Source: Pseudodesulfovibrio mercurii
GTDB taxonomy: Bacteria > Desulfobacterota > Desulfovibrionia > Desulfovibrionales > Desulfovibrionaceae
Assembly (NCBI RefSeq): GCF_000189295.2
Contig: NC_016803.1
Coordinates: 2,610,001-2,642,000 of the forward strand
DNA: 32,000 nt
Direction of reading: 5' to 3'
Part shown: positions 119 through 26,604 of the stretch, piece by piece
Numbering within the stretch: position 1 is the stretch's first letter
Layout of the letters: each line of letters begins with the position of its first letter
The notes under the pieces: model-generated
Told to the model about the DNA's origin: nothing
The model's input: only the letters and a program-made list of their open reading frames with translations
The model's database searches: none
Translations under genes and position numbers: made by a program

Positions 119-180
119 GCCAAGCGGACGGACGGCGGCGGACCCTCGCCCGCCGCCGGAGAACCGTCCGGCCGGACCGG

Positions 181-1590: not shown

Positions 1591-1775
1591 AAAAAGTTTA
1601 GGAAGGAAAAGGGGATGGGGGTCCGGGTGAAGGGGAGAGGGACAACCCTTTTCACCAATCCGCAGGACAGCAGATTTGGACCGCGCCCGCTTCGGGCGCG
1701 ACCCCGAAGGGGCGCAGGCCACGGACGGCCTGCGTCAAAGGGTTTCCCTCTCCCCTTCCCCCGGCCGCCGGAGGC
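1591..1775 (+). repeat. intergenic palindromic element, copy A (related to 28186..28271)
   Basis: It starts AAAAAAGTTTAGGA. The inverted arms are GAAGGGGAGAGGGACAACCCTTTT (1629-1652) and AAAGGGTTTCCCTCTCCCCTTC (1737-1758), complementary except for a 1-nt bulge. The 84-nt spacer holds three GC hairpins: 1682-1700, CCCCGAAGGGG, and GCAGGCC..GGCCTGC. The element ends GGCCGCCGGAGGC (1763-1775). It lies just downstream of the minus-strand gene 1792..2577 and may also act as its terminator. Confidence 0.4.
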
Positions 1776-1791
1776 GTCCGCCCGGGGCGGG

Positions 1792-2577: not shown

Positions 2578-2693
2578 TGAGTCAGCTCCTCACGGTTCTC
2601 CCCGTGGTTGTTCACGTTCCCGCCCGGCACGATGCCGTTTTCGAGAAAACCTTAATCATAAATAAAGAATTGTTTCAATCCATGAATATGTAT

Positions 2694-8798: not shown

Positions 8799-9030
8799 GC
8801 CTACCTCCGGGTTGGGGATGACGCTTATATTCCCATAGCCAATCTTTATGTTCCGGGCAAACTTGTGACCGCCCCGCGCGGCGGGCGTATATGGGCCGCG
8901 CAAGGCGGCGGGAGGAGCGGAGGCGGGCGCACCATCCCCGCCCCGGCCGGATTCCGCTGGCGTTATTTTCGTACAGCGGATATTCTGCGCGGAACTCATA
9001 CGCGTTCATCTTTTTCGGCGAGGAGAGCCC

Positions 9031-10809: not shown

Positions 10810-11058
10810 CCGCCTCCCGCACCGTCGGCGAGGTCCGGGAATCCGCCAGGGATCACGGCCAGGTCGGCTGGTTGTGGGCTGACTCGCCGACCGGCCTTGC
10901 CGAGTCTGGAAACCGGCCTGCGTTTCTGCTTTGCGGGCTGACGGCCCCGGCAGGGGGGGCTGCATTGTCCGCTCGGCTGACGGGAGCGAGCCGAGCGCCG
11001 TCCCCATCCGGACGGTGCGCGCTCCATGAAGCCCGCGCCGGGCGTCGAGGAATCGGGT

Positions 11059-13221
11059 TTATTGTTGCGGCGTGAAGAAATACACCGTCATTCCCTGGAC
11101 GACGCCCTTGTTGCGGCTGAATGCGATGAAATTGACCTTTTGCGCTTTCTTGTTGTCCATGATGGCGATGCCGATGCCGTTCTTCGTCTCGTCCTTTACC
11201 AGCAGGTCGTTGTTCATGTTCATGACGGCAACATCGAGCTCCCCGTCCTGTTGCGGTACGCTCATGAACAGATAGTGCCCTGTCTCCTCCAGGTCGATGT
11301 CGAATCCGGAATAAAAGACGCCGTTTCTCTCCTCGTCCAGTGCCAGCTTGTCGATCTTTTTTATCACGGAGACATTCATGTCGGGACTTTGCTTTTTAAG
11401 GACGTAGGTTATGAGTGCGTCGGCCGCGTTGCCCAGGGCGGCGTCCCAATAGGCAATGTCTATCCGCGACCGGGCCGGTTGCCCGTCGCCTTTGGGGGAC
11501 GTGGTGTAGGTCAACCCTATATTGCCGGGTTCTCCGGCCAGGACAAAGGCGTAGTGAGCATAGTTGGCGAAGTCGATTTTCGGGGTGTATGCGCTTATGT
11601 TCTTCTTTCCGGAAAGCACGATTTTCATGCCCTGGATGGTATCTTCGGATTGGATGCGTATCAGGTACAGCCCCGGTCTCTCCAAATGGATTTTCTCCGC
11701 GCCCGCACCCGCGCCCTGGCTGTTTTTCATGAGAACGTCGCTGGATATCGACCAGGCGGATTTCACCGTATCGACGCCGAAGATGTCTTTCGCTGCGTCC
11801 AGGACTTCCTGGTTCGATGTCGTGTAGCCCGGCAGATATTCACGCAGGCTTTCCTTCCACTGCTGCTTCAGGGCCGCGACCCTGCCGTCCGGATCCGGGC
11901 CGAGGAGGTCGAACAGGAAATCGATCCGCTGTCCGAAATTCACGTCGGCGGCGTTGGGAGTCCTGGCCCATGTGCCGGGGGACACGTTCATTGAACTGAT
12001 GATCCCGATGACCTTGCCCTCGGCGGTGAACATCGGGCTTCCGCTAGCGCCGCCGGTGACGGGCAGGCCGTGATGGATCAGCCTGTTGGGAAAGTCGTCT
12101 CGCCGGGTCTGGAAGAAATCGGTGACGCGAATTATCTCGTCCTGTTGGGCCACCGGGGCCGGTTTCTTGTTGTTCCCCGGCAACAGCGCCTCCATCGGGT
12201 AGCCGACAAAGGCCACCGGCATGCCCGGACCGATGGCGGAAAGCTCCTCCATGGTTGCCAGGGGCAGGGGCCGCCCCAGGTCTTCCGGGTTCTCGGGGTA
12301 GAGGATGGCGACGTCCGCAGGGGTGGTGGTTTTGAAGAGCGACAGCTTGTCGCCGACTTTTTGGCAGGGCCAATACCCGCTCCACAGGTCGCCGAAGGCG
12401 GCGTATCCCGGATGGATGAACGCGTCCTTGATGACATAACTCCTGTACGGGGCGACGGGCGAGCGGGCGATCATTTCCTCTTGAGGCTTCAGCCGTTCGA
12501 GCTGACCGGCCACATGGGCGTTGGTCACAAGCCGGTTCCCCTCGATGACCCAGGCGGTGCCTGCGGGCTGTTCCCCTCCCCCGCTGTTCCGGACCAGGAT
12601 CAGATATACGGAGCGGCTGATCCCCTCGATAACCTCGCGGGGAATGCCGTCGGCCTGTCCCTTCACCTGGGTCAGGGTTGCGGATATTGCGTCCAGGCGC
12701 GCGGCCACGCGCTGCACGTTGTCGTCCGAGACGTGGATATCCGATTCCAGCCAGAACTGGTGCTCGCCGATATAGAGCATCGCGGCGCCCAGCAACACGA
12801 GGAAGACGAGCAGGGTTCGGAGATGCCTGTTGGTCCGCTGCACCTGCTCCCCCGCCTGCAGGTTCCTCCCCGTGTTGTTCTTCGGCTGCCTCCGTTCGTC
12901 GATCACCTCGACTTCAATGATGACGTCTTCGCCGAGTTGGACGGTCGCCGTGCCCGCTATCTCCTGATCCTCGAAGGGCGTCTCCCCATCGATCAGGACA
13001 TGGTTGTCCATGTTGAGATCGACCTGGTACCGCCCCAGGCTCCGCCTGAAGGCGATATGCTCATTGCCCATTCCCGTGTCCCGATATCGCTCCGGAAACG
13101 AGATGTCGCAGCTCTCGGCGTCGCAGCCGACGACCACCATTTGATGCCGATGGTCGAAATAATATTCCGTTTTCCGGTCCGACGTCGTGCCCTGGAGAAT
13201 GGAGATCTTGAGTCCTGTCAT
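11059..13221 (-). CDS. FHA-like domain / single TM helix / trypsin-fold (S1, Trypsin_2-like) serine protease / C-terminal beta-rich domains (720 aa)
   Basis: The ATG at 13219-13221 is preceded by AAGGA. aa 1-105 (12907-13221) look FHA-like: VVVGCDAESCDISF..NEHIAFRR..GRYQV.L...VLIDGE...VQLGEDVIIEVEV. The TM helix is LLVFLVLLGAAMLYI (about 12769-12822). The protease domain is aa ~205-440 (11902-12609), with a His/Asp/Ser triad in the canonical order: GTAWVIEGNRLVTNAHV (H236), ADVAILY (D303), GGASGSPMF (S393). The last ~280 aa are beta-rich and possibly form two PPC-like sandwiches, which is a weak call. Confidence 0.85.
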   Translation of the reverse strand: MTGLKISILQGTTSDRKTEYYFDHRHQMVVVGCDAESCDISFPERYRDTGMGNEHIAFRRSLGRYQVDLNMDNHVLIDGETPFEDQEIAGTATVQLGEDVIIEVEVIDERRQPKNNTGRNLQAGEQVQRTNRHLRTLLVFLVLLGAAMLYIGEHQFWLESDIHVSDDNVQRVAARLDAISATLTQVKGQADGIPREVIEGISRSVYLILVRNSGGGEQPAGTAWVIEGNRLVTNAHVAGQLERLKPQEEMIARSPVAPYRSYVIKDAFIHPGYAAFGDLWSGYWPCQKVGDKLSLFKTTTPADVAILYPENPEDLGRPLPLATMEELSAIGPGMPVAFVGYPMEALLPGNNKKPAPVAQQDEIIRVTDFFQTRRDDFPNRLIHHGLPVTGGASGSPMFTAEGKVIGIISSMNVSPGTWARTPNAADVNFGQRIDFLFDLLGPDPDGRVAALKQQWKESLREYLPGYTTSNQEVLDAAKDIFGVDTVKSAWSISSDVLMKNSQGAGAGAEKIHLERPGLYLIRIQSEDTIQGMKIVLSGKKNISAYTPKIDFANYAHYAFVLAGEPGNIGLTYTTSPKGDGQPARSRIDIAYWDAALGNAADALITYVLKKQSPDMNVSVIKKIDKLALDEERNGVFYSGFDIDLEETGHYLFMSVPQQDGELDVAVMNMNNDLLVKDETKNGIGIAIMDNKKAQKVNFIAFSRNKGVVQGMTVYFFTPQQ

Positions 13222-13471
13222 ATGGGGTCCTTGGAGGGTCGAGGGGGGATACGGTCAAATCGCAACGGGCATGACGACGCACGGTGGATTTTCAGTACAC
13301 CAACGGGATCATCAAATCCACGTTGATTCTTCAACGGAACGTCAAGGTCAGGTCTGTTCACGGCCCGTCCCGCGTGCGCCGCCGCCCTCGCGGCGCGACA
13401 GGCGTCGTGTGGCGCCGTCCGAGACGGGGCGTCCCGCCTCTGTCTCCGTATGGGCCGCAGGTCCTTCCGCC

Positions 13472-14203
13472 TCATCTGTTGCGGGTTTTCAAACGCCGTC
13501 CCAACGCACGGGCCAACTGTTCCTTCGTATATTCAACCGGAGCCGGAACGGGGCGCGCCCCGCCCGGAGCGAGTATCGACACTTCGCCGGAAGGGGCCGT
13601 TGAAAGGAGAATTATGGGCATGTCGCGTTTCAGGGCCGCATGGACCGTGGCCGCCGTCCCGAGGGGCGTTGAAATATCCCCGTCGAAAACCGCGACCAAC
13701 AGATCGCTGTGATCGGCCAGGACTTCGGAACACGCGGCATACGCCTCAGGCCGATGCGCGGGGGAGCCGTCGAGTTCGATGATCCGGCCGACGGCCCGGC
13801 CCGCCGTTTTGCCGCCGATGCGGGTCAGCCATCGACGAAATTCGGCAACGGTCCCGTGAACCGGGTCCACGACGCTCGCTTCAGGCAGGAAATCCTTTTC
13901 ATATTCAGCCCTGGCGAAGGGCAGGATGGCGGTCAGGGTGTGTTCGAAGGGTATCAGGCCGGGTTCAATGCAGAGCCTGTCCGCTCCCTCCGCCAAGGAG
14001 GAGACGAACAGAAAACCGGCCTGTCCCCGGGCGGGGAAGTCCCCGGCGCCGTCGGCGGATGCGCGGTAAAGGTCCCGGTAGACTTGTCCGAGCTTTTGCC
14101 GCAGGCCCGGCAGCAACGCCGCCTCCAGACGCCTATGGCCTGCCACGCCGATGCGTATGGGAGAGGTCGCGTCCGTAGCGTGTATCTCTTGAAAAGGTCT
14201 CAT
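13472..14203 (-). CDS. small Rossmannoid protein with SLOG-like (LOG/DprA/YpsA/ThsA-C-terminal type) motifs (243 aa)
   Basis: The start is the ATG at 14201-14203; there is no strong Shine-Dalgarno. The motif order is IRIGVAGHRRL (strand plus Gly-loop), then FVSSLAEGADRL, then HSDLLVAVFDG...PLGTAATVHAAL...MPIILL. This matches the strand-loop-helix series of SLOG-fold proteins. Composition is normal. The gene lies upstream of the FHA-protease gene on the same strand and diverges from the TIR gene. The CDS call is firmer than the family call. Confidence 0.6.
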   Translation of the reverse strand: MRPFQEIHATDATSPIRIGVAGHRRLEAALLPGLRQKLGQVYRDLYRASADGAGDFPARGQAGFLFVSSLAEGADRLCIEPGLIPFEHTLTAILPFARAEYEKDFLPEASVVDPVHGTVAEFRRWLTRIGGKTAGRAVGRIIELDGSPAHRPEAYAACSEVLADHSDLLVAVFDGDISTPLGTAATVHAALKRDMPIILLSTAPSGEVSILAPGGARPVPAPVEYTKEQLARALGRRLKTRNR

Positions 14204-14337
14204 GCGGATGCCGCACCCAACGGCCGGACAATGTGAATGTGAACTTTATAAAAAAGCTAGTATATGGGCTTGCAAATTACAAGTACTCTATTTTAAAAAC
14301 TGTTATGGTTTAATATGTTGCCATATTCGGAGACGCC
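14204..14337. promoter_or_regulatory. AT-rich divergent promoter/operator region between the SLOG-like gene and the TIR gene
   Basis: This 134-bp spacer is by far the most AT-rich stretch in the window (TTTATAAAAAAGCTAGTATATGGGCTTGCAAATTACAAGTACTCTATTTTAAAAACTG). It contains TTGCAA and several TAxxxT-like hexamers. The palindrome AATATG-TTGC-CATATT (14312-14327) abuts the GGAGA Shine-Dalgarno (14329-14333) of the TIR gene. No transcription start can be assigned from sequence alone. Confidence 0.4.
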
Positions 14338-16290
14338 ATGAGTGAGACGGAAAGCCATAGATACAGTGCGTTCATCAGCTATCGGCACACCACAAAAGAC
14401 CGGAAATGGGCCGAGTGGCTTTTGGAGGCCCTGGAGACGTACCGTATTCCGAAGGCATTGCAAAAGGCGGGCTTTCCGGGCCGGGTGGGCAGGGTCTTCC
14501 GCGATCGAGACGAACTCCCGACGGACGGCAGCCTGAACAATCAGATCGAGACGGCGCTCAGGCAATCCAGATTCCTGATCGTCATCTGCTCTCCGGACAC
14601 CCCGCAGTCCAAGTGGGTATCCCGGGAAATCGAAATTTTCAAAGAGTTGGGGCGGGGAGACAAGATCCTCCCCCTGCTGGTCGAAGGTGAGCCGGACGAG
14701 TCCTTCCCCAAGGTGCTGACCACGAGTCGGCTTGTCGGTTTCGAGGAGGCCGAGGCCGATCCGCCGGTCAAGGATGTCGAACCCATAGGCGCGGATGTCC
14801 GGCCGGTGGAGGGCAAAAGCGAAAAGGAGATCAGGAAAGACGAACTGCTGCGGCTGGTGGCCGGGATAATCGGCTGCGGTTTCGATGACCTGAAGCAGCG
14901 GGACAAGGAGCGGGAGCGGAAAAAACGCCAGTACCGCATTATGGGGGGCGCAGTGACGTGCCTGCTGCTTCTCGCGGCCGGGCTTTATTATTGGGACTAT
15001 AATCGCATCAAGACAAGCTACTTTAATAACTACGTCAATGTGTACGGCGTCCCCAAGGGGATAGGGCCAATAAGCGATGAAGAGGCGAAGAAGAGGAATG
15101 TCGCCTATGCGCTTTCGTATCAGCGGGGCAAGCTCATACGCATGGTGCGGCAGAAGGGGGCGCAGAGGGCCATAGCCTACGAACAGTCCTACAATGTCGA
15201 CCCGTGGCTGGTTGGCATCGCCGAATGGCGGTATCAGTATGGAGTTCACGGGAGACTGGATAAGGTCTCCCTGTATGATGCCCAAGGCAAATACAAGGTC
15301 GCCCACAATTATGAATTCCCGACCGACGGGGACAAGGCAACCATCTATTTCCGCAAGATGTCCTATGAAGGCGAGGGCATCCCCACGACGGTTGAATCGA
15401 CCTCGTCCCTGCTCGCCGACTCCATGCAGAACGGCAAGAGTGAAATTTTTCAACACATTGTTTACTTCAACGCGCTTGGTTACGAAAGCAGAAGGGTTTT
15501 CCGCACGATCAGCGGGGGGGCCGCCAAAGACCAGCTCGGCGCCGCGGGGTATGCGTATGCGTATGACGGCCACGGCTCACGCGTGCGTGTCCGTTTCCTG
15601 GACACGCAACAGCATGAACTCATACTCAAATCCGGTCTCGCCGAGATCGTCTGTACTCCCTCCATTGACGGCATCGCCGAAACGATGACGTTCCTGAACG
15701 AAAAGGGCGAGCAGCTATTAACTAAGTTCGGGTATGCGAAAATAGTCGTCGAACTGGACGCTCAGAGAAATGCAACAGGGATAAGCGCTCTGGGGACGGA
15801 CGGGCAGCCGATTCTCCACAAGGAAGGGTACGCCCGGCTGATCCGACGCTATGACGACCGGGGCAACCTCATCGAGGAAGCCTACCGGGGAGTGGATGGT
15901 CGGCCCGTCCTCTGCGATGAGGGCTATGCCAAGGTCACCTGCGCATATGACGACCGAGGCAACGCAACGGAATACGCCTACCAGGGCGCCGACGGTCAAC
16001 CGATTCTCCGCAAGAACGGCTATGCCCGGCTGACCCGACGCTATGACGACCGGGGCAACCTGGTCGAACAAGCCTATTGGGGGGTGGATGGTCGGCCCAT
16101 TCTCCACAAGGATGGTTACGCCGAGGTCTCCTGCGAGTACGATGATCGCGGCAACTTCATCAAGGAAGCGTACCGGGGAGTGGATGGGCGGCCGGTCCTT
16201 TGCGGTTATGGCTATGCCAAGGTCACCTGCGCATATGACGACCGAGGAAGCCTACCGGGGAGTGGATGGTCGGCCCGTCCTCTGCGATGA
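14338..16290 (+). CDS. TIR-domain / single-TM / tandem-repeat protein, 5' portion (ends at a frameshift-induced stop)
   Basis: The ATG at 14338 has a GGAGA Shine-Dalgarno 4 nt upstream. TIR motifs occupy aa ~8-130 (14359-14727): YSAFISYRHTTKD..WAEWL, VFRDRDELPTDGSL...I..AL..SRFLIVICSP....SKWVSREIEIF (conserved Glu at E97), ILPLLVEGEP. The linker is EPIGADVRP...LLRLVAGIIGCGFDDLKQRDKERERKKR. The TM helix is IMGGAVTCLLLLAAGLYYW (about 14938-14991). Degenerate repeats and then canonical 32-aa repeats follow. After codon 16243 the frame reads SLPGSGWSARPLR and then a stop. Confidence 0.85.
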   Translation: MSETESHRYSAFISYRHTTKDRKWAEWLLEALETYRIPKALQKAGFPGRVGRVFRDRDELPTDGSLNNQIETALRQSRFLIVICSPDTPQSKWVSREIEIFKELGRGDKILPLLVEGEPDESFPKVLTTSRLVGFEEAEADPPVKDVEPIGADVRPVEGKSEKEIRKDELLRLVAGIIGCGFDDLKQRDKERERKKRQYRIMGGAVTCLLLLAAGLYYWDYNRIKTSYFNNYVNVYGVPKGIGPISDEEAKKRNVAYALSYQRGKLIRMVRQKGAQRAIAYEQSYNVDPWLVGIAEWRYQYGVHGRLDKVSLYDAQGKYKVAHNYEFPTDGDKATIYFRKMSYEGEGIPTTVESTSSLLADSMQNGKSEIFQHIVYFNALGYESRRVFRTISGGAAKDQLGAAGYAYAYDGHGSRVRVRFLDTQQHELILKSGLAEIVCTPSIDGIAETMTFLNEKGEQLLTKFGYAKIVVELDAQRNATGISALGTDGQPILHKEGYARLIRRYDDRGNLIEEAYRGVDGRPVLCDEGYAKVTCAYDDRGNATEYAYQGADGQPILRKNGYARLTRRYDDRGNLVEQAYWGVDGRPILHKDGYAEVSCEYDDRGNFIKEAYRGVDGRPVLCGYGYAKVTCAYDDRGSLPGSGWSARPLR

Positions 16291-19072
16291 GGGCTATGCC
16301 AAGGTCACCTGCGCATATGACGACCGAGGCAACGCAACGGAATACGCCTACCAGGGCGCCGACGGTCAACCGATTCTCCGCAAGAACGGCTATGCCAGGC
16401 TGACCCGACGCTACGACGACCGGGGCAACCTGATCGAACAAGACTATTGGGGAGCGGATGGTCGGCCGATCCTGCAAAAGAACGGGTACGCCCGGCTGAT
16501 CCAACGCTATGATGACCGGGGCAACCTGATCGAACAATCCTATCGGGGAGTGGATGGTCAGCCCATTCTCCACAGGGATGGTTACGCCGGAGTGACCCAA
16601 ACATACGATGAACACGGCAACCTCATCGAGGAAGCCTATTGGGGCGTGGACGGGCAACCGATTCTCCACAAGGAAGGGTACGCCCGGCTGACCCGACGCC
16701 AGGATGACCGGGGCAACCTCATTGAACAATCCTATTGGGGAGTGGACGGTCGACCGATTCTCCGCAAGAACGGCTTTGCCCGGCTGACCCAACGCTATGA
16801 CGACCGGGGCAACCTGGTCGAACAAGACTATTGGGGCGTGGACGGTCAACCGATCCTCCGCAAGAACGGGTATGCCCGGCTGACCCGACGCTATGATGAT
16901 CGGGGCAACCTGATCGAACAATCCTATTGGGGGGTCGGCGGCCAACCGATTCTCCACGAAGAGGGTTACGCCCGGCTGATCCAACGCTATGACGACCGGG
17001 GCAACCTCATCGAACAATCCTATTGGGGGGTGGATGGTCGGCCGGTCCTCCGCGATAACGGCTATGCCAGGCTCACCTGCGAATATGATGATCGCGGCAG
17101 CCTCATCGGGGAGGCCTATTGGGGAGTCGGCGGGCAACCGATTCTCCACAAGGATGGGTACGCCCGGCTGAGCCAACAATACGATGACCGGGGCAACCTG
17201 ATTGAACAATCCTATTGGGGCGTGGACGACCGGCCGATTCTCCACAAGAACGGGTATGCCAGGCTCACCTGCGAATATGATGATCGCGGCAGCCTCATCG
17301 AGGAAGCCTATTGGGGCGTCGACGGGCAACCGATTCTCCAAAGGGATGGGTACGCCAGGTTGGCCCAACAATACGATGACCGGGGCAACCTGATTGAACA
17401 ATCCTATTGGGGCGTGGACGGTCAACCGATTCTTCGCAAGAAGGGGTTTGCCAGGCTGACCCAACGCTATGATGATCGCGGCAACATTCTTGAGGAAGCC
17501 TATTGGGGCGCCGACGGTCAGCCGATTCTCAATAAGGATGGCTACGCCAGGCTGACCCGGAAATACGACGGCCGGGACAACGTGACGGAATATGCCTACT
17601 GGGGAACCGACGGGCAGCCGATCCTCTGCAAAAACTATTTCGCCAGGCTGACCCAGAAATACGATGGTCGGGGCAATCTCGTCGAGGAGGCCTACTGGGG
17701 AACCGACGGGCAACCGATCCTTTGCAAAAACGCTTTCGCCAGGTTGACCCAACGCTATGATGGGCGGGGCAACCTCATTGAACAGGCCTATTGGGGACCT
17801 GATGGGCGGCCGATCCTTTGCAGTAACGGGTATGCCGGGTTCACCAGCGAATATGATGGCCGGGGCAACGTCATTGGACTAGCCTATTGGGGCGTTGACG
17901 GGAAGCCGACGTTTCTCAAAGCGGGCTATTGCATGCAGACCCGGCAATATGATGATCGAGGCAACGTCATTGAGGAAGCCTACTGGGGACCCGATGGGCA
18001 GCCGATCCTTTGCAGAAAAGGGTATGCCCGGGTCACTCAGCAATATGATGATCGGGGCAATGTCACGGGATACGCCTACTGGGGGGTAAGCGGGCAGCCG
18101 ATTCTTCAATGGGAGGGCTATGCCGGGGACACTCGAAAGTATGATGATCGAGACAACGTTACGGAACATGCCTACTGGGGAACCGATGGACGGCCGATCC
18201 TCTGCACGGAGGGGTATGCCAAGGTCGCCCTACGCTATGATGGTCGAGGGAACCTCATCGAAGAAGTCTACCTGGGAATGGACGGGCAGCCGGTCCTGAG
18301 CAAAAGAACCGGTTTTTCCAGGCTCACAAAGAAATATGACGCCCAAGGGAATGTAACGGAATATGCGTGCTGGGGCGTTGACGGGAAACCCATCCTGCAT
18401 CCCGGCGGCTTTTCCAAATTCCTCGTGCGACATGATGCCCGGGGAAATCATATTGAGGAAGCCTATTACGGTCCGTCGGGAAAGCCCGTTCTTATCCAAA
18501 AAGGCTACGCCAAGCTCACCGAAAGGTATGACGATCGAGGGTACCGGATCGAGCAGGCCTATTGGGGAGTAGATGGAGCGCCCATCCTCCGGAAAGACGG
18601 TTTTGCCAAGCTCACCGAAAGGTATGATGGTCGAGGGCATGTCACGGAGCAAGCGTACTGGGGAGTGGACGGTAGGCCGATTCTCCACAAAAAGGGTTAT
18701 GCCAAGGTCACCTACGAGTATGATGATCGGGGCAACGTCATCGAGGAAGCCTACTGGGGAGTGGATGGACGGCCGATCCTCAACCAAAATGGATATGCCA
18801 GGCTGACCCCGAAACATGACGACCGAGGCAACATCATTGAGGAAGCCTACTGGGGAGTGGATGGACGGCCGATCCTCAACGGAGAGGGGTGTGCCGTGCT
18901 GACGCTCAAGTATGACGGCCGGGGGAACGTCACGGAACACGCCTTTTGGGGAATAGACGGAAGACCCATATCGGGTGCAAAGGGATATGCCAAATGCACC
19001 CTGAAATATGCTCCCGAGACGAATGCATTGCTCGAAGTCCGCTACTATGACGCAAAGGGAAATGTCATGAAG
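15730..19072 (+). repeat. coding tandem array: 35 units of 96 bp (32 aa), consensus GYARLTRRYDDRGNLIEQAYWGVDGRPILxKx (YD/RHS-like beta-hairpin repeat)
   Basis: I counted the units directly from the translation: 6 in the first ORF and 29 in the second. One unit is 82 bp (16234-16315), one is 33 aa, and the last is a degenerate 30 aa. Each unit looks like two 16-aa halves (xxAxxxxxYDxxGNxI and ExAYWGxDGxPIxxxx). 15873-16026 is identical to 16243-16396 (154 nt). A 37-nt string (GCTATGCCAAGGTCACCTGCGCATATGACGACCGAGG) occurs three times. Confidence 0.9.
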
Positions 19073-19075
19073 TAA
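16043..19075 (+). CDS. 3' portion of the same TIR-repeat gene (29 further 32-aa repeat units), in the +1 frame relative to 14338..16290
   Basis: The ORF-track frame opens at 16043, but its first ~67 codons are out-of-frame readings of the repeats. Meaningful repeat translation starts at 16244 (EEAYRGVDGRPVLCDEGYAKVTCAYDDRGN...). It runs to the TAA at 19073-19075. There is no independent Shine-Dalgarno or start context at 16244, so this is most simply the continuation of one disrupted gene. Confidence 0.7.
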   Translation: MTTGATWSNKPIGGWMVGPFSTRMVTPRSPASTMIAATSSRKRTGEWMGGRSFAVMAMPRSPAHMTTEEAYRGVDGRPVLCDEGYAKVTCAYDDRGNATEYAYQGADGQPILRKNGYARLTRRYDDRGNLIEQDYWGADGRPILQKNGYARLIQRYDDRGNLIEQSYRGVDGQPILHRDGYAGVTQTYDEHGNLIEEAYWGVDGQPILHKEGYARLTRRQDDRGNLIEQSYWGVDGRPILRKNGFARLTQRYDDRGNLVEQDYWGVDGQPILRKNGYARLTRRYDDRGNLIEQSYWGVGGQPILHEEGYARLIQRYDDRGNLIEQSYWGVDGRPVLRDNGYARLTCEYDDRGSLIGEAYWGVGGQPILHKDGYARLSQQYDDRGNLIEQSYWGVDDRPILHKNGYARLTCEYDDRGSLIEEAYWGVDGQPILQRDGYARLAQQYDDRGNLIEQSYWGVDGQPILRKKGFARLTQRYDDRGNILEEAYWGADGQPILNKDGYARLTRKYDGRDNVTEYAYWGTDGQPILCKNYFARLTQKYDGRGNLVEEAYWGTDGQPILCKNAFARLTQRYDGRGNLIEQAYWGPDGRPILCSNGYAGFTSEYDGRGNVIGLAYWGVDGKPTFLKAGYCMQTRQYDDRGNVIEEAYWGPDGQPILCRKGYARVTQQYDDRGNVTGYAYWGVSGQPILQWEGYAGDTRKYDDRDNVTEHAYWGTDGRPILCTEGYAKVALRYDGRGNLIEEVYLGMDGQPVLSKRTGFSRLTKKYDAQGNVTEYACWGVDGKPILHPGGFSKFLVRHDARGNHIEEAYYGPSGKPVLIQKGYAKLTERYDDRGYRIEQAYWGVDGAPILRKDGFAKLTERYDGRGHVTEQAYWGVDGRPILHKKGYAKVTYEYDDRGNVIEEAYWGVDGRPILNQNGYARLTPKHDDRGNIIEEAYWGVDGRPILNGEGCAVLTLKYDGRGNVTEHAFWGIDGRPISGAKGYAKCTLKYAPETNALLEVRYYDAKGNVMK

Positions 19076-21008
19076 TGGACAACCCGCAAGACTCCTTCAG
19101 CAACTTCGGCAGGGTCCGTTGCATGTCCCTGTCGAATTCCTTTGTCTTTTCACTCAGCTCGTCAAAGGGGATCATGTCCGGGTGCGTCAGGCGCAAATCG
19201 TCGCGCGGTCCTTTTTCCCAGCCCGCCAGGACGCGTTCGACCCACCAGCGGTTGTGCTCCTGTTCGGCCATGGTCTCGATTTGTTCGTCGGTGAACGTGG
19301 CGTTGTCCGTATCCGCCTCGGCGGCGGCCAGGCTGAATCCGTTGCTCCTCAGGCGCTCGAGATAGGCGTCCGCCTGGTAGCGGTTCGACCAGCGGTATTT
19401 CTCGCTCAGCCGTTCCCAGGGCTTTTGCGCGGGTTTGTTCCGATCCATCCAGCCGTTGGCCTGCAACGTGTTCAGATATACCTGATGAATGGACCGCGCC
19501 AACCGTTCCTGCTGGGCGTCGTCAAGAAGGTACTCGTCCAGCGAGCCGAAGAAACGGATATTGTCCCACCGGGTGTCCGGGGCCTCCACCTGCCGGTCCT
19601 TTTCCCTGGTCGTGACCGAAACGGCGGTTTGCTCCTGAAGCCGCCGGGCGAATTCGGAAAGACCGGCGGTCACTTCCTGCCGGACCAATATCGGAATCTC
19701 GCCGATCAGCACCTCGGGGGGCAATCCCAGGGCCGTGGACATGGACTGGTCGGGATCGGAGAGACAGATGACCACGGTGAGTATTTTCTTTTCGTCCAAG
19801 GCCAGCCCGGTCAGCAATTCCCTGGCCTCGGGAGCATCCGCCGCGGCCTCGTGAAAGACGAAGCGCACGCCGGGCAGGCGGCCATCCACCAGGCCGTGCT
19901 GCATCTCGAAAGCGGTCCTCCTTGTGCCGAGGTCGGGATCAAAAACCACGATTTCGGCATCCTGGTTGTTGGCATGGTTGGCCAGCCGCGCCGCCTGCAA
20001 GGCCATGGCCTGCCCCATCTGCCCGAATCCGAGGATCGCGACCACCACGTTCGCGCCCGGGGCGCGCCTACTGTACAGTAGCGGAGGGTAGGGGGGATGC
20101 GGATGGCGGGCGTCCGGCAGGCGGCTCCAGACCTTGCGGGCCCAGCCTTCGTAAAAATTGAAGGGGCGGAAATCCAGGAATTGGCGGTCTTCCTCCGACA
20201 GATCGATCTCCTGGAGCAGATCGTATGTCCGCAGATGGGAAATGGCCACCTGGCAGCCGAGCAGGCCGGATGGGGTGCCGGGAGATGCCTTGGAAACCAT
20301 CTCCGCTATGCGCATGGCCGTTTGCAGGTTGCGGCTGTTGCTGCCCCTTACCTGGGGATCGCCCAAGATGACCACCTTCCGTGCGGCCCAGGGGCGGAGA
20401 TTCCGTAATTCTTCAACGGCATCGAAGGACCCGTGGAAAATGAAGACATGCCGGGTTTTCTTTCGGAGTTCCTTTGCATCAAAAGCGGAGAAGGTCGTGA
20501 GGGCGTTGCGCACCTTCTCGGCCTCGCTCATGGTCAGGACGACCACCTCCCGGCATCCCTCGGAAAGCAGGTGATGCACCGTTGCGGGACCCATGCGGTC
20601 CCACCCCAAGATGATGCCGTGGTCCTTCTTGAAGGTATACCGGGCAAGCCCTTGACGAGCCCGGCGCATGCGGCGCTCATACGTGTTCACCAGCACCGAG
20701 ACGAACAGGCCCCCCAAAAGGAGGAACCCGGCCAGGGATAAAGCCACACTGAGAAGACGCCATTCGGAATGTCCCGCCTCATTTCCCAAAAAGCCCGGAT
20801 CCATCGTGTGTACGAACGCCCACCAGAACGGATCACAGGAATTCGTTCCGAGAACGTCGATGTTCATGCTCTTGGCAACCAGCCATCCCGCCAGGAGGAT
20901 GACGCAATAGGTAACGATCAGCATCCGGACTTGACTGAAAACGGACCCGGCCAAGATCCTGTCGAGCTGTTTGGAAATGAAGCTGCAAGGCAAGATTTTC
21001 ATTGTCAC
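19065..21008 (-). CDS. 2-TM ion-channel-like protein with two RCK/TrkA-N-like Rossmann modules and C-terminal tandem RyR-type domains (647 aa)
   Basis: The likely start is the GTG at 21006-21008, with AAGGA 6 nt upstream; an alternative ATG lies at 21000-21002. TM1 is VRMLIVTYCVILLAGWLVA. The pore-helix-like string is DPFWWAFVHTMDPGFLG, which has no TVGYG filter. TM2 is LLSVALSLAGFLLLGGLFVSVLV. The channel region spans about 20679-20927. Rossmann motifs are GIILGWDRMG and VVAILGFGQMGQA. RyR-type motifs lie at about 19089-19511: ERLARSIHQVYLNTLQANGW...KPWERLSEKYRWSNRYQADAYLERLRSNGF and MAEQEHNRWWVERVLAGWEKGP...THPDMIPFDELSEKTKEFDRDM. The stop codon overlaps the convergent TIR-repeat gene by 11 bp. 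Confidence 0.8.
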   Translation of the reverse strand: MTMKILPCSFISKQLDRILAGSVFSQVRMLIVTYCVILLAGWLVAKSMNIDVLGTNSCDPFWWAFVHTMDPGFLGNEAGHSEWRLLSVALSLAGFLLLGGLFVSVLVNTYERRMRRARQGLARYTFKKDHGIILGWDRMGPATVHHLLSEGCREVVVLTMSEAEKVRNALTTFSAFDAKELRKKTRHVFIFHGSFDAVEELRNLRPWAARKVVILGDPQVRGSNSRNLQTAMRIAEMVSKASPGTPSGLLGCQVAISHLRTYDLLQEIDLSEEDRQFLDFRPFNFYEGWARKVWSRLPDARHPHPPYPPLLYSRRAPGANVVVAILGFGQMGQAMALQAARLANHANNQDAEIVVFDPDLGTRRTAFEMQHGLVDGRLPGVRFVFHEAAADAPEARELLTGLALDEKKILTVVICLSDPDQSMSTALGLPPEVLIGEIPILVRQEVTAGLSEFARRLQEQTAVSVTTREKDRQVEAPDTRWDNIRFFGSLDEYLLDDAQQERLARSIHQVYLNTLQANGWMDRNKPAQKPWERLSEKYRWSNRYQADAYLERLRSNGFSLAAAEADTDNATFTDEQIETMAEQEHNRWWVERVLAGWEKGPRDDLRLTHPDMIPFDELSEKTKEFDRDMQRTLPKLLKESCGLSITS

Positions 21009-21164
21009 GTTTCATCCTTGTCGAAGAAGATGGATACCCGCATGCGTCATGTGGGGCCTGCGGCACAAAATGAACGTTTGCCGAGGCCCTCGTTTCAGAT
21101 CCGGGCTTGCGTCCGCTCCCGGCTTCTTTCCGGCCGTCCATTCCAGGCAATTTGCCTGATGGAT

Positions 21165-21254
21165 GGCAAACTCCGCAGGCGTCGGGTTGCCCAAGGAACA
21201 GAGAGGACGATCCACATTGTAGTCCCGCCTCCACGCTCCGACTTTACGCTGCGT
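21165..21254 (-). pseudogene. remnant of an IS3-family transposase (C-terminal end of the rve/integrase-core OrfB)
   Basis: The translation TQRKVGAWRRDYNVDRPLCSLGNPTPAEFA matches the conserved IS3 OrfB C-terminal signature (..W...YN..RPHSSLG..TP.EF), with HS replaced by LC. I could not find the catalytic core upstream in any frame, so only about 30 codons survive. Confidence 0.55.
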
Positions 21255-22172
21255 ATCCCCCGGAGACAATCAACATGTCCAGCCGGCCATATCAACAGGA
21301 GAATCGGACAATAACCCTCCTCTTGCAAGGGTATAGCCCGTGGACATCTTCGGAGCAACCTTGCGCTTTTTACTCTCCGAAGCATTCGCTCCCGCGCGTG
21401 TTGTCGTGAGCCTTGCCCCTATTCCTGGGCGCCGGCCGCTTGGCAACCACAGGGAAGAACGGAGGCGGCGAAAAGGGACGAAACGTCCGTCCGTCGCCTC
21501 TGCCGATCCCCGATCCCCAACCGGATTCCTCCAGGCGTTTTTCGGCAAGATGTATGGGTGATGCGCCACCCGGACCTGTGGCCATGGGTTCCGGTTCCAG
21601 GCGAAGCGCTTCGGTCTGGATTCCCCGGTCGCCGGGCTCCGTCCGTCCGCTTTCGCCTGGGCGTCATGCGGGGCGGAATGAAGCTCCACGTTGTTCGACC
21701 AAAACGGATGGCTGCCCGCCTTCGTCCGGGTGACCAAGGCCCGGCTGCACGATTCCGGGATGGCCGAGATGCTGAAGCGGCCCAAGGGGTCCATCGCCGT
21801 ATGACCAGGCCCACGGCAACCATTCCCGGTTTCGGACGCTGGAAGCTCCCCGCGTGTCCCTTGTCGCCAGGCGCGGGACCAACGCCCTTCATGCAGAGGT
21901 CAGGCGACGTTCTGCCGGGAAAGGCGGGGCGTGACCTCGGGCCGCGCGGTCAACGCCATCGTCCGCGGCAAGGCGTTCCGCCTTCGGCGCAGGGGCGACC
22001 GAGACAGGGAAAGCGGAAAGTACCAAGCGGTTGCGAGGATCGAGGCCCTGTGGGTTGATGAGACCGACACCGCACGGCAAGAAGCCGTTGAAGCGTGAGG
22101 AAGATCGACGAGAATTCACCCACCCACGAAAAAGGCTTCCGTCAAAACTGACGAAAGCCTTTGATTCCGAAG

Positions 22173-24271: not shown

Positions 24272-24693
24272 CGTCCTTCCTCCTCTTCCCTGGCCGGCAG
24301 ATCGACCATCTCCAGGCAGTCGTGGGGGCAGTAGGCCACGCACTGGCCGCAGTGGATGCAGACGTAGGGGTTGACCTGGTGGTCCAGGAAGATGGCGTCC
24401 ACCGGGCAGGCCTCGGCGCACCGGCCGCAGCGGATGCACAGGTTGCGCTTCTGGATCACGCCGCCGTCGCGGCGCTGGGACAGGGAGCCCGTGGGACAGG
24501 CCTCGGCGCAGGGGGCCGGGTGGCAGGCCAGGCACAGCCGCGCCTCGAAGCCGGTGGACAGGCCGCCCGCCGACGAGATGCGAATGCCCGCCTTGTTCCA
24601 GGAAAGGACCTTATGGACCTGCCGGGCGCAGGCCAGCGAGCAGGAATGGCAGCCGATGCATCGTTCCATGCGGGCCGCTCTGAGAGCTTTCAT
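24268..24693 (-). CDS. 4Fe-4S poly-ferredoxin-type protein (141 aa), probable electron partner of the AOR
   Basis: The ORF was trimmed to the ATG at 24691-24693, preceded by GGAGG. The product starts MKALRAARMERCIGCHSCSLAC. Further cysteine motifs are CLACHPAPCAEACP, CIRCGRCAEACP and CIHCGQCVAYCP. Confidence 0.85.
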   Translation of the reverse strand: MKALRAARMERCIGCHSCSLACARQVHKVLSWNKAGIRISSAGGLSTGFEARLCLACHPAPCAEACPTGSLSQRRDGGVIQKRNLCIRCGRCAEACPVDAIFLDHQVNPYVCIHCGQCVAYCPHDCLEMVDLPAREEEEGR

Positions 24694-26356: not shown

Positions 26357-26604
26357 GCCTAGGTAAAGACCGTTCCGGCCCGGTTTGTCAATGGCCGGGC
26401 GTCCGGCCCCTGGGCAGACTTTGCCGACCCGTCCCGCGTCCCGTCCGCGACCGCCTGATTTTTTGCCAGCCATATCAGCCCCCTGTCCGCCGCCGGGCCG
26501 TTCCTCACCAGACCGTCACCCGACGTGGCCCCGATTTTGCTCAATCCCGGATGAGGCGGAAGGAACCGCCAATGTTTTGACGTCGTAAAGGAGTACGATG
26601 GAGC

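Follow-up and report, generated by a model that had tools for sequence, protein, structure and literature searches.

A membrane-bound TIR protein with a YD-type repeat array beside an RyR-domain channel-like gene in Pseudodesulfovibrio mercurii: a candidate Thoeris-like receptor system

The window considered here, a stretch of 32,000 nucleotides from Pseudodesulfovibrio mercurii (NC_016803.1, positions 2,610,001 to 2,642,000), carried a gene for a TIR protein that ran into a long tandem repeat array and was flanked by genes for a 243-aa protein and an RyR-domain protein (Table 1). The initial annotation had described a single gene at 14338-19075, encoding a TIR domain, one transmembrane (TM) helix and an ectodomain of about 1,350 aa. 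Its anatomy (TIR domain, basic stretch, helix and 32-aa array) was recovered here, although not as one continuous ORF: a frameshift at 16247 interrupted the gene.

Table 1. Features of the TIR-TM-repeat locus (window coordinates)
Feature	Position	Strand	Details and basis
243-aa alpha/beta Rossmann-like protein gene, candidate second signal-binding component	13472..14203	-	motifs, recurrence
ORF1	14338..16290	+	frame 1, 650 aa; source-genome annotation 'DUF1863'/TIR protein
TIR domain	14362..14733	+	aa 9-132; Pfam, AF2, Foldseek, invariant E97
Cytoplasmic linker helices	14821..14937	+	aa 162-200; ends in basic cluster KQRDKERERKKRQYR
Predicted TM helix	14938..14994	+	aa 201-219, IMGGAVTCLLLLAAGLYYW
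Membrane-proximal beta-hairpin region ('degenerate units')	15010..15729	+	aa 225-464; AF2, alignment
Regular 32-aa YD-type units 1-5 and 5' part of broken unit	15730..16245	+	frame 1
154-nt exact repeat	copy 1 15873..16026, copy 2 16243-16396	+	offset 370 = 4x96-14
Frameshift junction	16166..16329	+	two 82-nt copies in place of 96-nt units
Remaining units, 3' part of broken unit through unit 34	16247..18982	+	open only in frame 2
Remnant unit at the C-terminus, with stop codon	18983..19075	+	overlaps 3' end of convergent RyR gene by 11 nt
RyR-domain gene, candidate read-out	19065..21008	-	647 aa; Pfam, PDB phmmer, AF2, Foldseek

The N-terminal TIR domain, initially placed at aa ~8-130, was located by Pfam at aa 12-121, counted from the ORF start at 14338 (TIR_2, E=4.5e-15, 56.6 bits, cut-off 28). 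It also exceeded the curated thresholds of profiles ThsB_TIR (E=2e-9, 38.2 bits, cut-off 21.2) and TIR (21.8 bits, cut-off 21.3) and is thus a member of the TIR superfamily. AF2 displayed the strands and helices of a TIR fold over aa 9-132 (pLDDT ~86-91), and Foldseek matched this model with AbTir (7uxu_A, TMt 0.58), SARM1, RPS4 and BtpA. Residue E97, within motif W93-x-x-R-E97-I, was invariant across 31 aligned family members and aligned with the glutamate in the PdTIR (4c7m) motif WPARE; we take this position to be the catalytic Glu of TIR NADases. Judged from these residues, the domain looks catalytically competent and is putatively of the NAD-cleaving type.

The linker displayed a motif, RLVAxIIGCxFDDLxQRD..., that was conserved throughout the wider TIR-TM superfamily. 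It ended in the basic stretch KQRDKERERKKRQYR, directly followed by IMGGAVTCLLLLAAGLYYW, which was the sole strongly hydrophobic 19-mer and coincided with the helix proposed initially (aa ~201-219). The Kyte-Doolittle (KD) mean of this segment, 1.69, barely exceeded the usual threshold of 1.6, and no hydrophobic segment was found in ORF2 on the same scale (maximum 0.5). Nine K+R residues were counted in the 15 aa on its N-side and two in the 15 aa on its C-side (eight and two in slightly shifted windows). The structure prediction called for by the initial annotation (AF2; pLDDT 86.9 and pTM 0.68 overall) returned the TIR domain, one continuous helix at aa 182-222 containing the TM segment (pLDDT 93-95) and, right behind it, hairpin strands beginning at aa 225.

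Comparable features were encountered in 83 relatives from many phyla. Their TM helix displayed a median KD of 1.93, and K+R medians were six on the N side (TIR) and two on the C side (repeats), the N-flank exceeding the C-flank in 77 of them. Elsewhere the TM-YD module followed a Ser/Thr protein kinase (Pkinase) domain (P0146, P0157, P0164 and P0175) or an nSTAND1 domain (P0172). The former is the classic N-in layout of receptor kinases, which supports the topology of the window protein; both the charge bias and these fusions thus favour the earlier claim that the repeats lie outside the cytoplasm. With one TM helix and a positive-inside bias, the window protein is predicted to be a single-pass, N-in membrane receptor. 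The surface exposure proposed initially would require the array to cross the outer membrane; otherwise, in a diderm, it is expected to lie in the periplasm.

The ectodomain is composed of about eight degenerate units, which were 35-40 % identical in full-length relatives, followed by 34 strict 32-aa units (aa 465-1548 of the conceptual protein) and a C-terminal remnant. The strict period announced by the initial annotation was therefore retained while its count of 35 units was corrected, and the consensus computed here, GYARLTQRYDDRGNLIEEAYWGVDGQPILHKN, was nearly identical to the one proposed. Tandem Repeats Finder reported a 96-nt period with higher orders of 192 and 288 nt. The suspected relationship to YD/RHS repeats was confirmed by Pfam RHS_repeat (E=9e-11 for the whole sequence, no individual stretch being significant alone; E=5.7e-31 in relative P0157) and by Foldseek, which matched the hairpins with Rhs cores, the teneurin YD shell and Tc toxin BC at probability 1.0.

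Rhs/YD-repeat proteins are typically extracellular. T6SS Rhs effectors, Tc toxin BC and teneurins share with the window protein the beta-hairpin repeat and its YD-x-x-G-N/R turn, and these matches, as well as the marginal KD score of the helix, would also agree with an Rhs-type polymorphic toxin or with a cytoplasmic repeat scaffold devoid of a real TM helix. Such an identity is nevertheless highly improbable. The Rhs core motif PxxxxDPxGL, sought in the window protein as P....DP.G[LWIV] or DP.G[LW], gave no match; an N-terminal plug, an aspartyl-protease core motif, an encapsulated toxin and PAAR were likewise lacking, and the protein ended in a repeat remnant instead of a C-terminal toxin domain. 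The ectodomain model (aa 225-624 only) displayed TM-scores of only 0.1-0.23 to Rhs shells, with rmsd of 14-20 A. The comparison of repeat numbers suggested by the initial annotation gave about 5 to 32 units among relatives. This variability and the strict 32-aa period set the array apart from Rhs/YD proteins, and a variable number of units is easier to reconcile with an open-ended array than with a closed cocoon, so that a shell is less likely. Conservation of the helix and charge bias throughout the family, and the sharing of the module with receptor kinases, also argue against a toxin or scaffold. The repeats are YD/RHS-like locally, yet the protein is not an Rhs protein.

The stretch 14338-19075 cannot be a single ORF since its length, 4,738 nt, is not divisible by three. 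ORF1 extended from the TIR domain over the linker, the TM helix and the membrane-proximal beta region into the first 5.5 regular repeats, and ended 45 nt past the frameshift junction. The distal array was open only in the +1 frame (ORF listed as 16043-19075): the 942 codons after the junction displayed no stop in frame 2, whereas the two remaining frames contained 28 and 51. The switch from frame 1 to frame 2 occurred at 16246/16247, in a unit of 27 instead of 32 aa. The junction, at 16247/16248, was an out-of-register near-duplication, segments 16166-16247 and 16248-16329 (82 nt each) being 91 % identical, with microhomology CGAGG at the joint. It was also where the second copy of the 154-nt repeat began; the array contained no other long exact repeat (next longest 56 nt). 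Only the 650-aa ORF, 100 % identical to ORF1, was annotated by NCBI. Owing to the frame shift, the deposited P. mercurii genome contains a 650-aa TIR-TM-repeat protein and 942 open +1-frame codons, and the full-length ectodomain is obtained only as a conceptual translation skipping one base. As deposited, the 650-aa product keeps every module with only 5.5 regular units, and it matches the size of apparently intact relatives with partner genes (663 aa in L028, 645 aa in L026).

As the gene is frameshifted, the system may no longer work in this strain. In that case the receptor would be a recent pseudogene with a real frameshift, ORF1 and the out-of-frame array both being functionless; this is consistent with the broken 27-aa unit, with an NCBI annotation confined to the 650-aa ORF and with the location of the junction on the sole 154-nt exact repeat, a mark of recent recombination or conversion. 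Complete loss of function appears doubtful, however, because ORF1 retains its TIR domain, TM helix, proximal domain and 5.5 units at a length seen in apparently intact relatives, and because the downstream codons are free of stops, which indicates that the event was very recent or is an artefact. An error of assembly or finishing would account for the same lack of stops: the 82-nt unit would result from assembling a 96-nt tandem array, and the true gene would be an intact ORF of ~1,580-1,590 aa, comparable to intact relatives L013, L019, L008 and L029 (28-32 units, 1,443-1,584 aa). The array is indeed difficult to assemble, as two independent assemblies made from short reads of this organism (Logan SRR3926152 and SRR3926153) break off ~215 nt into it. 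Such an error is nonetheless rather unlikely, since the joint has merely five nt (CGAGG) in common with its source, unlike overlap or k-mer assembler mis-joins, and since the deposited chromosome is one 3.86-Mb contig. The receptor system is thus possibly crippled or shortened here.

The family was large, with 11,437 clusters of 50 % identity at E<=1e-30, 1,781 matches in a word search and at least 598 loci among species-representative genomes. It was found in Proteobacteria, Planctomycetota, Verrucomicrobiota, Bacteroidota, Clostridia and others. The initial interpretation gained strength at the family level as to the architecture, while it failed on the intact gene and on rarity, the transmembrane TIR form having been considered unusual. 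The 'TIR-linker-TM' module is conserved while the outside domains vary, including YD arrays, WD40, TPR, FGE-sulfatase-like, PDZ and C-type lectin domains. No published description of a TIR-TM-repeat family was found in the literature searched. This large bacterial family is apparently undescribed, and its members are often situated beside RyR-domain ion-channel genes.

In the window, the product of the RyR-domain gene displayed two TM helices, a segment resembling a pore helix and a pair of RCK/Rossmann domains. Its C-terminal RyR (R12) domain (aa about 497-647) was recognised by Pfam RyR (E=7e-15) and by a phmmer search of PDB, where the match was to the R12 domain of RyR (E=3e-18). The top Foldseek matches of its AF2 model (pLDDT 79.8, pTM 0.73) were the GsuK K+ channel (E=4e-8, TMt up to 0.58), CASTOR/DMI1 gating rings and Slo1; the C-terminus matched RyR3 Repeat12 (TMt about 0.56-0.65). 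The fold is thus shared with RCK-gated 2TM channels (GsuK, CASTOR/DMI1, Slo), whereas the pore segment reads FVHTMDPGF and not TVGYG. No described channel uniting an RCK ring and an RyR domain was found in the literature searched.

Of 81 other loci, 12 had an RyR-domain ORF beside a TIR-TM gene, often co-directionally and with gaps of <50 nt, so that about 15 % of the sampled relatives had an RyR gene within 8 kb. Locus L029 displayed the order TIR-TM, RyR and homologue of the 243-aa protein (gaps of 22 and 13 nt), and L038 the order RyR, TIR-TM and TM protein. In the reciprocal look-up, which started from homologues of the RyR protein, a gene for a TIR-TM-C-type-lectin protein followed 30 nt downstream in L084/L085, and an nSTAND1 plus SIR2-TIR pair was found in L086; beside an RyR-less relative no TIR gene was detected. 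The RyR domain was preceded by a TrkA_N/RCK channel-like part in the window, L006 and L028, and by a different, non-membrane N-terminus in L029. Ligand sensors that are coupled to diverse effectors typically occur in this way, behind varied N-terminal parts. Thoeris TIRs produce 2'cADPR and 3'cADPR, and RyR-domain proteins of phages bind or cleave both, binding of cADPR isomers by RyR being shown for phage proteins only; RyR domains can also act as hydrolases/glycosidases and not sensors, e.g. phage RyDEP (preprint PMC13232231).

The 243-aa protein displayed motifs IGVxGHR ... SxLAxGAD ... WDG ... GGT. Searches of Pfam, NCBIfam and PDB (including profiles) gave no match, and none to SLOG/LOG/DprA-type domains; a SLOG-like reading would draw on resemblance of motifs, and the protein is not assigned to that group here. 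Nearly all of its 337 relatives were labelled 'hypothetical', and PF10686 appeared in one of the 120 relatives listed. Homologues were found beside TIR-TM genes in eight other loci (about 10 % of the sampled relatives). In L069 and L040 they were joined to a multi-TM region that weakly matched DUF4231, and in L006 to an RyR channel-like protein. The 243-aa gene of the window was divergent and the RyR gene convergent; the three genes do not form an operon, and most family members appear devoid of an RyR or 243-aa partner, two observations that count against a three-gene reading.

In Thoeris anti-phage systems, a ThsB TIR protein acts as sensor and signal generator, and an effector of the ThsA type binds the signal through a SLOG, Macro or other domain. 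Resemblance to them lies in the TIR domain with its conserved Glu and ThsB_TIR match, in neighbours carrying a Rossmann-like domain and an RyR domain, of the kind binding Thoeris-type cADPR isomers (PMC13232231), and in the fusion of a signal-binding domain to varied effector parts. Described ThsB proteins are cytosolic, whereas the window protein is anchored in the membrane and carries a very large domain outside. Neither a SIR2-SLOG nor a Macro effector adjoined the window TIR gene, RyR channel-like and Rossmann-like genes being found there instead, and the candidate effector, an RCK channel-like protein with an RyR domain, is absent from effector types I-XI in 10.64898/2025.12.03.692087, which does not mention RyR. 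Among Thoeris-type models, only the generic Pfam ThsB_TIR domain passed its threshold; NCBIfam Thoeris_type3_ThcB4 remained far below (11.7 bits, cut-off 220) and PADLOC ThsB matched short stretches only (E about 7e-4).

Animal Toll-like and IL-1 receptors are also single-pass, with a repeat-built ectodomain outside and TIR inside, and their ligand-driven TIR apposition provides a plausible activation logic. They differ in domain order, the window protein having an N-terminal TIR domain and type II topology, and in their LRR or Ig ectodomains as opposed to YD hairpins; moreover, the window TIR has retained the Glu that is catalytic in enzymatic TIRs and is predicted to be more than a pure scaffold. 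Membership among Toll-like receptors was rejected on account of the N-terminal TIR and the YD-type array without LRR (no Pfam LRR match in the window protein), the resemblance being one of analogy; there was no evidence for common descent of the whole architecture with Toll-like/IL-1 receptors. Bacterial receptor Ser/Thr kinases (PknB-like) displayed an identical layout, including in relatives the same TM-YD sensor module, and differed in having a kinase instead of TIR as output domain.

With moderate confidence, the locus is regarded as encoding a type II membrane receptor, YD array outside and TIR in the cytoplasm, belonging to an outward-looking Thoeris-like signalling system that is possibly crippled here. 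The recurring flanking genes, which the initial annotation had missed, suggest how the TIR output might be read. An envelope-side cue, such as phage attachment or penetration, attack by another cell or envelope damage, would alter how the ectodomain packs or oligomerises and draw the cytoplasmic TIR domains together, as TIR enzymes require. The apposed domains would cleave NAD+ into an ADP-ribose-derived messenger of cADPR-isomer type, which may be sensed by the RyR (R12) domain of the adjoining RCK channel-like protein and perhaps also by the 243-aa protein, leading to ion flux, membrane depolarisation and growth arrest.

Most family members looked like stand-alone genes without recognisable partner within 8 kb, e.g. 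L001, so that TIR could act alone via NAD+ depletion, the mode of many bacterial TIR effectors (reviewed in 10.64898/2025.12.03.692087). The protein would in that case be a suicide NADase triggered by an envelope cue without diffusible messenger, and the RyR and 243-aa neighbours would be unrelated, or would modulate or terminate the response, for instance if RyR hydrolysed cADPR/ADPR as phage RyDEP does, the glycosidase activity possible for RyR-domain proteins (PMC13232231) being compatible with this. We consider it unlikely, as tight RyR linkage recurs in at least five phyla and was also found reciprocally, and as the fusion of RyR to channel-like and other N-termini better fits a sensor than a scavenger.

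The YD array could alternatively be a general extracytoplasmic sensor (of cell wall state, cell-cell contact or teneurin-like adhesion) that feeds TIR, Ser/Thr kinase or nSTAND1 outputs for physiological regulation, e.g. of K+ flux, and serves housekeeping or social signalling but not immunity. Hanks-type kinases bear the same TM-YD module, curated defence-system models gave no above-threshold match, and L001 was flanked by ordinary metabolic genes. A role outside immunity is nonetheless improbable in view of the neighbours encountered (TIR, nSTAND1, SIR2-TIR, trypsin-like protease, M48) and the arrays of several TIR-TM paralogues, both typical of conflict islands (Kaur et al. 2020, PMC7159879). 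The window copy itself was situated in a low-GC stretch (0.56-0.64 vs 0.65-0.74).

The TIR locus of Pseudodesulfovibrio mercurii (14338-19075, plus strand) combined a membrane-anchored TIR domain, bearing a conserved catalytic-type glutamate, with an outside array of Rhs-type hairpin repeats (YD repeats), and genes of the type of its two neighbours, coding for a 647-aa RyR-domain protein and a 243-aa protein, were recurrently linked to such loci. The initial annotation had taken this interval as one receptor ORF with a repeat ectodomain of ~1,350 aa. All features named there were real, but the ORF was split by a frameshift into two overlapping frames, ORF1 (TIR domain, membrane helix and repeats) and ORF2 (downstream repeats), which together form the conceptual protein considered below.

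By membership, the window product is a TIR-domain protein, with Pfam matches over aa 12-122 (TIR_2, E=4.5e-15; ThsB_TIR, 2e-9; TIR, 1.8e-4). The TIR part of its AlphaFold model resembled AbTir (7uxu_A, TMt 0.58), SARM1, RPS4 and BtpA in Foldseek searches. Residue E97 of the motif W93-x-x-R-E97-I was invariant in an alignment with 30 relatives and aligned with the glutamate of 'WPARE' in the Paracoccus TIR structure 4c7m; this position is presumably that of the catalytic glutamate of TIR NADases, and NADase activity is predicted.

Only one 19-mer, residues 201-219, exceeded the Kyte-Doolittle threshold (mean 1.69), no hydrophobic segment being detected in the repeat region, and it was preceded by nine K+R within 15 residues (eight in slightly different windows) versus two in the next 15. 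AlphaFold displayed an unbroken helix at aa 182-222 (pLDDT 93-95), with beta structure from aa 225. Among 83 relatives with a minimum length of 500 aa, gathered from 82 loci, the equivalent helix had a median Kyte-Doolittle value of 1.93 and reached at least 1.6 in 71; K+R were more numerous on its N-terminal than on its C-terminal side in 77 of the 83 (medians of six on the TIR side versus two on the far side). An exhaustive profile search against 1.84 billion cluster representatives also retrieved proteins sharing only the TM-plus-repeat part, behind other N-termini. In the five of these that were scanned, the N-terminus was a Ser/Thr protein kinase (P0146, P0157, P0164, P0175) or an nSTAND1 NTPase (P0172). 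Kinase-TM-sensor is the standard layout of receptors with the N-terminus inside, and the domain swaps thus provide independent support for this topology. An arrangement with the TIR domain inside, a single TM helix and extracytoplasmic repeats is well supported by sequence and model, and the TM-plus-YD array seems to behave as an exchangeable extracytoplasmic sensor cassette. Its presence on Ser/Thr kinases and nSTAND1 proteins would mark it as a general one, whose ligand is worth finding. Some of these five kinase and nSTAND1 fusions carried a C-terminal PDZ domain.

In the conceptual protein (1,578 aa), a unit HMM placed 34 units, each 32 aa long, between aa 465 and 1548, with a C-terminal remnant behind them. 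The unit consensus was GYARLTQRYDDRGNLIEEAYWGVDGQPILHKN, and positions 4, 7, 8, 15, 18 and 30-32 varied most. The kinship with YD/RHS repeats put forward initially was borne out by Pfam (RHS_repeat, E=9e-11, whole-sequence score) and by Foldseek, whose top matches (probability 1.0) were T6SS Rhs cores (8qja_B, E=3.8e-12), teneurin YD shells and Tc-toxin BC. The AlphaFold model of aa 1-624 (pLDDT 86.9, pTM 0.68) displayed Rhs-type hairpins, one strand pair per unit and similar ones throughout the 'degenerate' aa 225-464, but superposition on the Rhs, teneurin and Tc structures yielded TM-scores of just 0.1-0.23 (rmsd 14-20 A). The number of detectable units ranged from about five to 32 among relatives, which is why an open-ended array seems to fit better than a closed cocoon, as judged from the sequences and the aa 1-624 model. 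Neither an Rhs core motif, nor PAAR, nor a C-terminal toxin was present, and an Rhs polymorphic toxin was rejected; this reading, or that of a cytoplasmic scaffold, is essentially excluded.

The length of the interval 14338-19075, 4,738 nt, is not divisible by three. At the junction, translated frame 1 reads '...KVTCAYDDRGSLPGSGWSARPLR*', and frame 2 carries on the repeat from 16247 ('EAYRGVDGRPVLCDEGYAKV...'), with 942 open codons against 28 and 51 stops in the other two frames. Tandem Repeats Finder detected a 96-nt period across the array, with higher orders of 192 and 288 nt. The exception was 16163-16329, composed of two 82-nt copies head to tail (91% identity). Segment 15873-16026 was exactly repeated at 16243-16396, with an offset of 370 (4x96-14); this 154-nt identity was the sole long exact repeat of the array, the runner-up being 56 nt. 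The junction sits at a 5-nt microhomology (CGAGG), and the unit there is 27 instead of 32 aa long. Either the gene was broken very recently, by recombination or conversion out of register, or the junction is an error of the finished assembly. A pseudogene in P. mercurii is possible at best, and an assembly error at the junction rather doubtful; the latter would agree with Logan short-read assemblies of the same organism, which end at the array edge. No further record of the exact ORF1 product was found elsewhere, and the exact 38-nt junction sequence had 0 matches in metagenome contigs. A programmed +1 frameshift at 16240-16290 was judged unlikely because no slippery or stop-adjacent motif was recognisable and the joined 27-aa unit would break the hairpin register. 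Promoter and terminator scans gave nothing above shuffled background. Either the P. mercurii receptor is a shortened protein of 650 aa, or it is dead or mis-assembled; genome users should be aware that the NCBI label of the 650-aa ORF ('protein of unknown function DUF1863 / TIR domain-containing') conceals ~940 further codons of a split gene. Within 16354-17901, the 192-/288-nt periodicity corresponded to units alternating in pairs and triplets, which indicates amplification of the array two or three units at a time.

The first ~215 aa (TIR, linker, basic cluster and TM, hereafter TIR-TM) displayed 45-55% identity to proteins with other C-terminal parts, namely WD40, TPR, FGE-sulfatase-like or PDZ; for full-length relatives, which also possess the proximal beta region and YD-type units, identity was 35-43%. 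At least 598 relatives were confirmed among species-representative genomes; they include Nitrosomonas, Pseudomonas izuensis and many Alphaproteobacteria as well as Planctomycetota, Verrucomicrobiota, Bacteroidota, Clostridia, Desulfovibrionaceae and others. The exhaustive search yielded 27,916 matches at E<=1e-3, of which 11,437 reached E<=1e-30; the best 150 all exceeded 730 bits, and most of these displayed the full TIR-TM-YD layout over 800-2,000 aa. The receptor-like architecture of the initial annotation held, but its description as unusual does not agree with the 11,437 representatives, and surface exposure of the array found no support. More than 10,000 sequence clusters with an enzymatic-type TIR domain tied to an outside sensor domain imply that many bacteria may couple envelope events directly to NAD-derived second messengers. 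Ten loci (L013, L023, L026, L027, L028, L032, L036, L039, L040 and L045) held two to four paralogues of TIR-TM that differ in their outside regions, and most of these islands also held an M48 peptidase with zinc ribbon and a ~168-aa zinc-ribbon protein.

Features of the window and of the loci of relatives (L numbers)
Sequence	Feature	Coordinates	Strand	Size	Remarks
Window	Bmp/PnrA substrate-binding protein	181-1467	-
Window	vWA protein	2694-8999	-	2,101 aa
Window	Trypsin_2 protein	11059-13221	-	720 aa
Window	243-aa neighbour	13472-14203	-	243 aa
Window	ORF1	14338-16290	+	650 aa	ORF list
Window	ORF2	16043-19075	+	1,010 aa as listed	ORF list; other frame, overlaps ORF1
Window	RyR neighbour	19065-21008	-	647 aa
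Window	Aldehyde ferredoxin oxidoreductase	22511-24535	-		Ordinary-looking
Window	GT4 glycosyltransferase	24728-26473	-		Ordinary-looking; weak 'GT4-conflict' match
Window	GGDEF diguanylate cyclase	26605-28101	+		Ordinary-looking
Window	Phage head-to-tail connector (portal)	29229-30968	+
L029	TIR-TM	8010-12590	+	1,526 aa	Intact long relative, 28 units; Clostridiales
L029	RyR	12613-14349	+
L029	243-aa homologue	14363-14839	+
L038	Homologue of window RyR protein	5820-7979
L038	TIR-TM	8004-10700
L038	RyR-domain TM protein	10716-12887
L084	TrkA_N-RyR	7001-9925
L085	TrkA_N-RyR	171-3095
L013	Intact long relative			1,508 aa	32 units
L008	Intact long relative			1,584 aa	29 units
L019	Intact long relative			1,443 aa	30 units
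L028	Short relative, ORF1-sized			663 aa	Ignavibacteriaceae
L026	Short relative, ORF1-sized			645 aa
L003	Relative in the isolate Pseudomonas izuensis (IzPS43_3003)			1,306 aa

The RyR neighbour displayed a RyR domain (Pfam, E=7e-15; PDB RyR R12 domain, E=3e-18), and its relatives bear TrkA_N or Slo-like RCK domains. Its AlphaFold model (pLDDT 79.8, pTM 0.73) starts with two long helices on either side of a short one; a pair of Rossmann-type domains follows, and the C-terminal domain is helical. The top Foldseek ranks went to the Geobacter GsuK channel, to gating rings of CASTOR/DMI1 and to Slo1 channels, and the C-terminus resembled RyR3 Repeat12. According to the model, the protein would be channel-like, with two TM helices and RCK domains in a tandem ring, the RyR (Repeat12) domain occupying the C-terminus at aa ~497-647. 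The pore-like segment reads FVHTMDPGF instead of TVGYG. Since both termini of 2TM channels of RCK type are cytoplasmic, the RyR domain would share the compartment of the TIR domain.

Clustering of all ORFs from the 82 loci revealed that both genes flanking the window TIR gene recur. RyR-like ORFs, counted with a local RyR HMM, were present in 12 of the 81 other loci, mostly directly adjacent to the TIR-TM gene and co-directional, with L029, L038 and L006 as examples; the pairing spans many phyla. The HMM replaced a BLAST cluster ('RyR-B') that proved heterogeneous, its member from L035 being a papain peptidase with a lectin-like domain and that from L036 having no Pfam match. An HD domain guessed by eye at the N-terminus of the L029 RyR protein was not confirmed by Pfam. 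In reciprocal look-ups that set out from homologues of the RyR protein, the TrkA_N-RyR gene of L084 and L085 lay 30 nt upstream of a TIR-TM-C-type-lectin gene, whose 372-aa product (TM helix at aa 165-185, C-type lectin-like outside domain) represents another type of TIR-TM receptor with a RyR partner. The RyR protein of L086 adjoined an nSTAND1 protein and a SIR2-TIR protein, and a relative devoid of the RyR domain had no TIR neighbour.

The 243-aa neighbour (DND132_2366, 'hypothetical' at NCBI) displayed the conserved Rossmann-like motif set GHR ... SxLAxGAD ... WDG ... GGT; of its 337 relatives, almost none carried an annotation. Nothing usable for it came from Pfam at E<=1, NCBIfam, a PDB profile search or a homologue search; it is SLOG-like by motif only, a SLOG assignment having no profile or PDB support. 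Homologues were found in eight other TIR-TM loci. The domain formed the N-terminal part of multi-TM proteins in L069 (with a weak DUF4231 match), L040, L033 and L047, and in L006 the RyR protein carried a similar one as a C-terminal fusion. It may represent a new nucleotide-signal sensor domain. Further TIR-TM paralogues, the M48 peptidase with zinc ribbon and the 168-aa zinc-ribbon protein were the other recurrent neighbours.

According to a 2026 preprint (PMC13232231), the messengers of Thoeris TIR proteins, 2'cADPR and 3'cADPR, are bound or cleaved by phage RyR-domain proteins (PF02026), and RyR R12 domains retain the residues in contact with the ligand; the TIR-RyR pairing ties in with this binding of cADPR isomers. 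In the mechanism proposed here, an envelope-side cue would alter the ectodomain, and the TIR domains would gather and turn NAD+ into an ADP-ribose-derived messenger. The latter would be bound by the RyR domain of the channel-like protein, possibly also by the 243-aa protein, and membrane potential or ion balance would shift, bringing growth to a halt. The overall logic would be that of Thoeris with an outward-looking sensor. Bacteria might widely use such a TLR-like outside-in path, from the YD-hairpin array, or a different exchangeable ectodomain, through membrane TIR and cADPR-type product to an RCK channel gated via its RyR Repeat12 domain, a proposal that we regard as tentative. A stand-alone NAD+-depleting receptor would be in line with the many family members, e.g. 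L001, devoid of a RyR or 243-aa partner within 8 kb, and is considered unlikely; envelope or contact signalling of a non-immune kind seems likewise improbable. For the outside-in path, the recurrent RyR-domain partner offers a concrete, testable read-out. The family-level picture and the TIR-RyR link make these findings more interesting, the broken P. mercurii copy and the purely computational basis less so.

To our knowledge, the known bacterial TIR systems (Thoeris types I-XI) rely on cytosolic TIR sensors and detect infection from inside. By its sequence, the window protein is outside the curated Thoeris families (NCBIfam ThcB4, 11.7 bits versus a cut-off of 220; weak PADLOC ThsB match) and is neither an Rhs toxin nor a TLR. 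Thoeris, TLR/IL-1R and receptor Ser/Thr kinases are its nearest analogues in mode of action. With Thoeris it would share a TIR signal plus an effector. Like TLR/IL-1R it is a single-pass TIR receptor, although with reversed domain order, and with receptor Ser/Thr kinases it shares the same TM-YD sensor module. A December 2025 Thoeris survey describes effector types I-XI, without a RyR-domain effector or a membrane-anchored TIR sensor (10.64898/2025.12.03.692087). In passages retrieved by keyword, two conflict-system surveys refer to TIR effectors and to sensor domains in the periplasm, without describing this architecture (PMC7159879, PMC10907252), and a TIR classification paper reports prokaryotic TIR groups to be diverse in architecture, no more (PMC7075850). 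Literature searches for TM-anchored bacterial TIR receptors, TIR with YD repeats and TIR with RyR uncovered no description of the family; an earlier partial mention is possible. The locus would add to TIR-based signalling an outward sensor on a membrane TIR and a TIR-RyR link. The action of cADPR on ryanodine receptors in animals has long been debated, and the bacterial pairing echoes this question. If true, the proposed path would be the first immune-type TIR system with a sensor facing outside the cell, and a prokaryotic counterpart, possibly the evolutionary source, of the animal cADPR-ryanodine-receptor link.

GC content was 0.56-0.64 at 11000-22000 versus 0.65-0.74 in most of the flanking 1-kb windows. 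The difference points to horizontal acquisition of the segment that carries the TIR locus and its neighbours. The same low-GC stretch included the Trypsin_2 protein, which was not a recurrent neighbour in other loci; it displayed a ~140-aa N-terminal region without family, one hydrophobic segment, the Trypsin_2 domain and a long C-terminal part, likewise without family. Upstream, the large von Willebrand A protein (VWA_2, E=1e-22) contained long regions without family; giant vWA proteins are common in conflict systems. The portal gene (Pfam Head-tail_con, E=2.9e-154) identifies, by sequence, a prophage or phage remnant beginning near the 3' end of the window.
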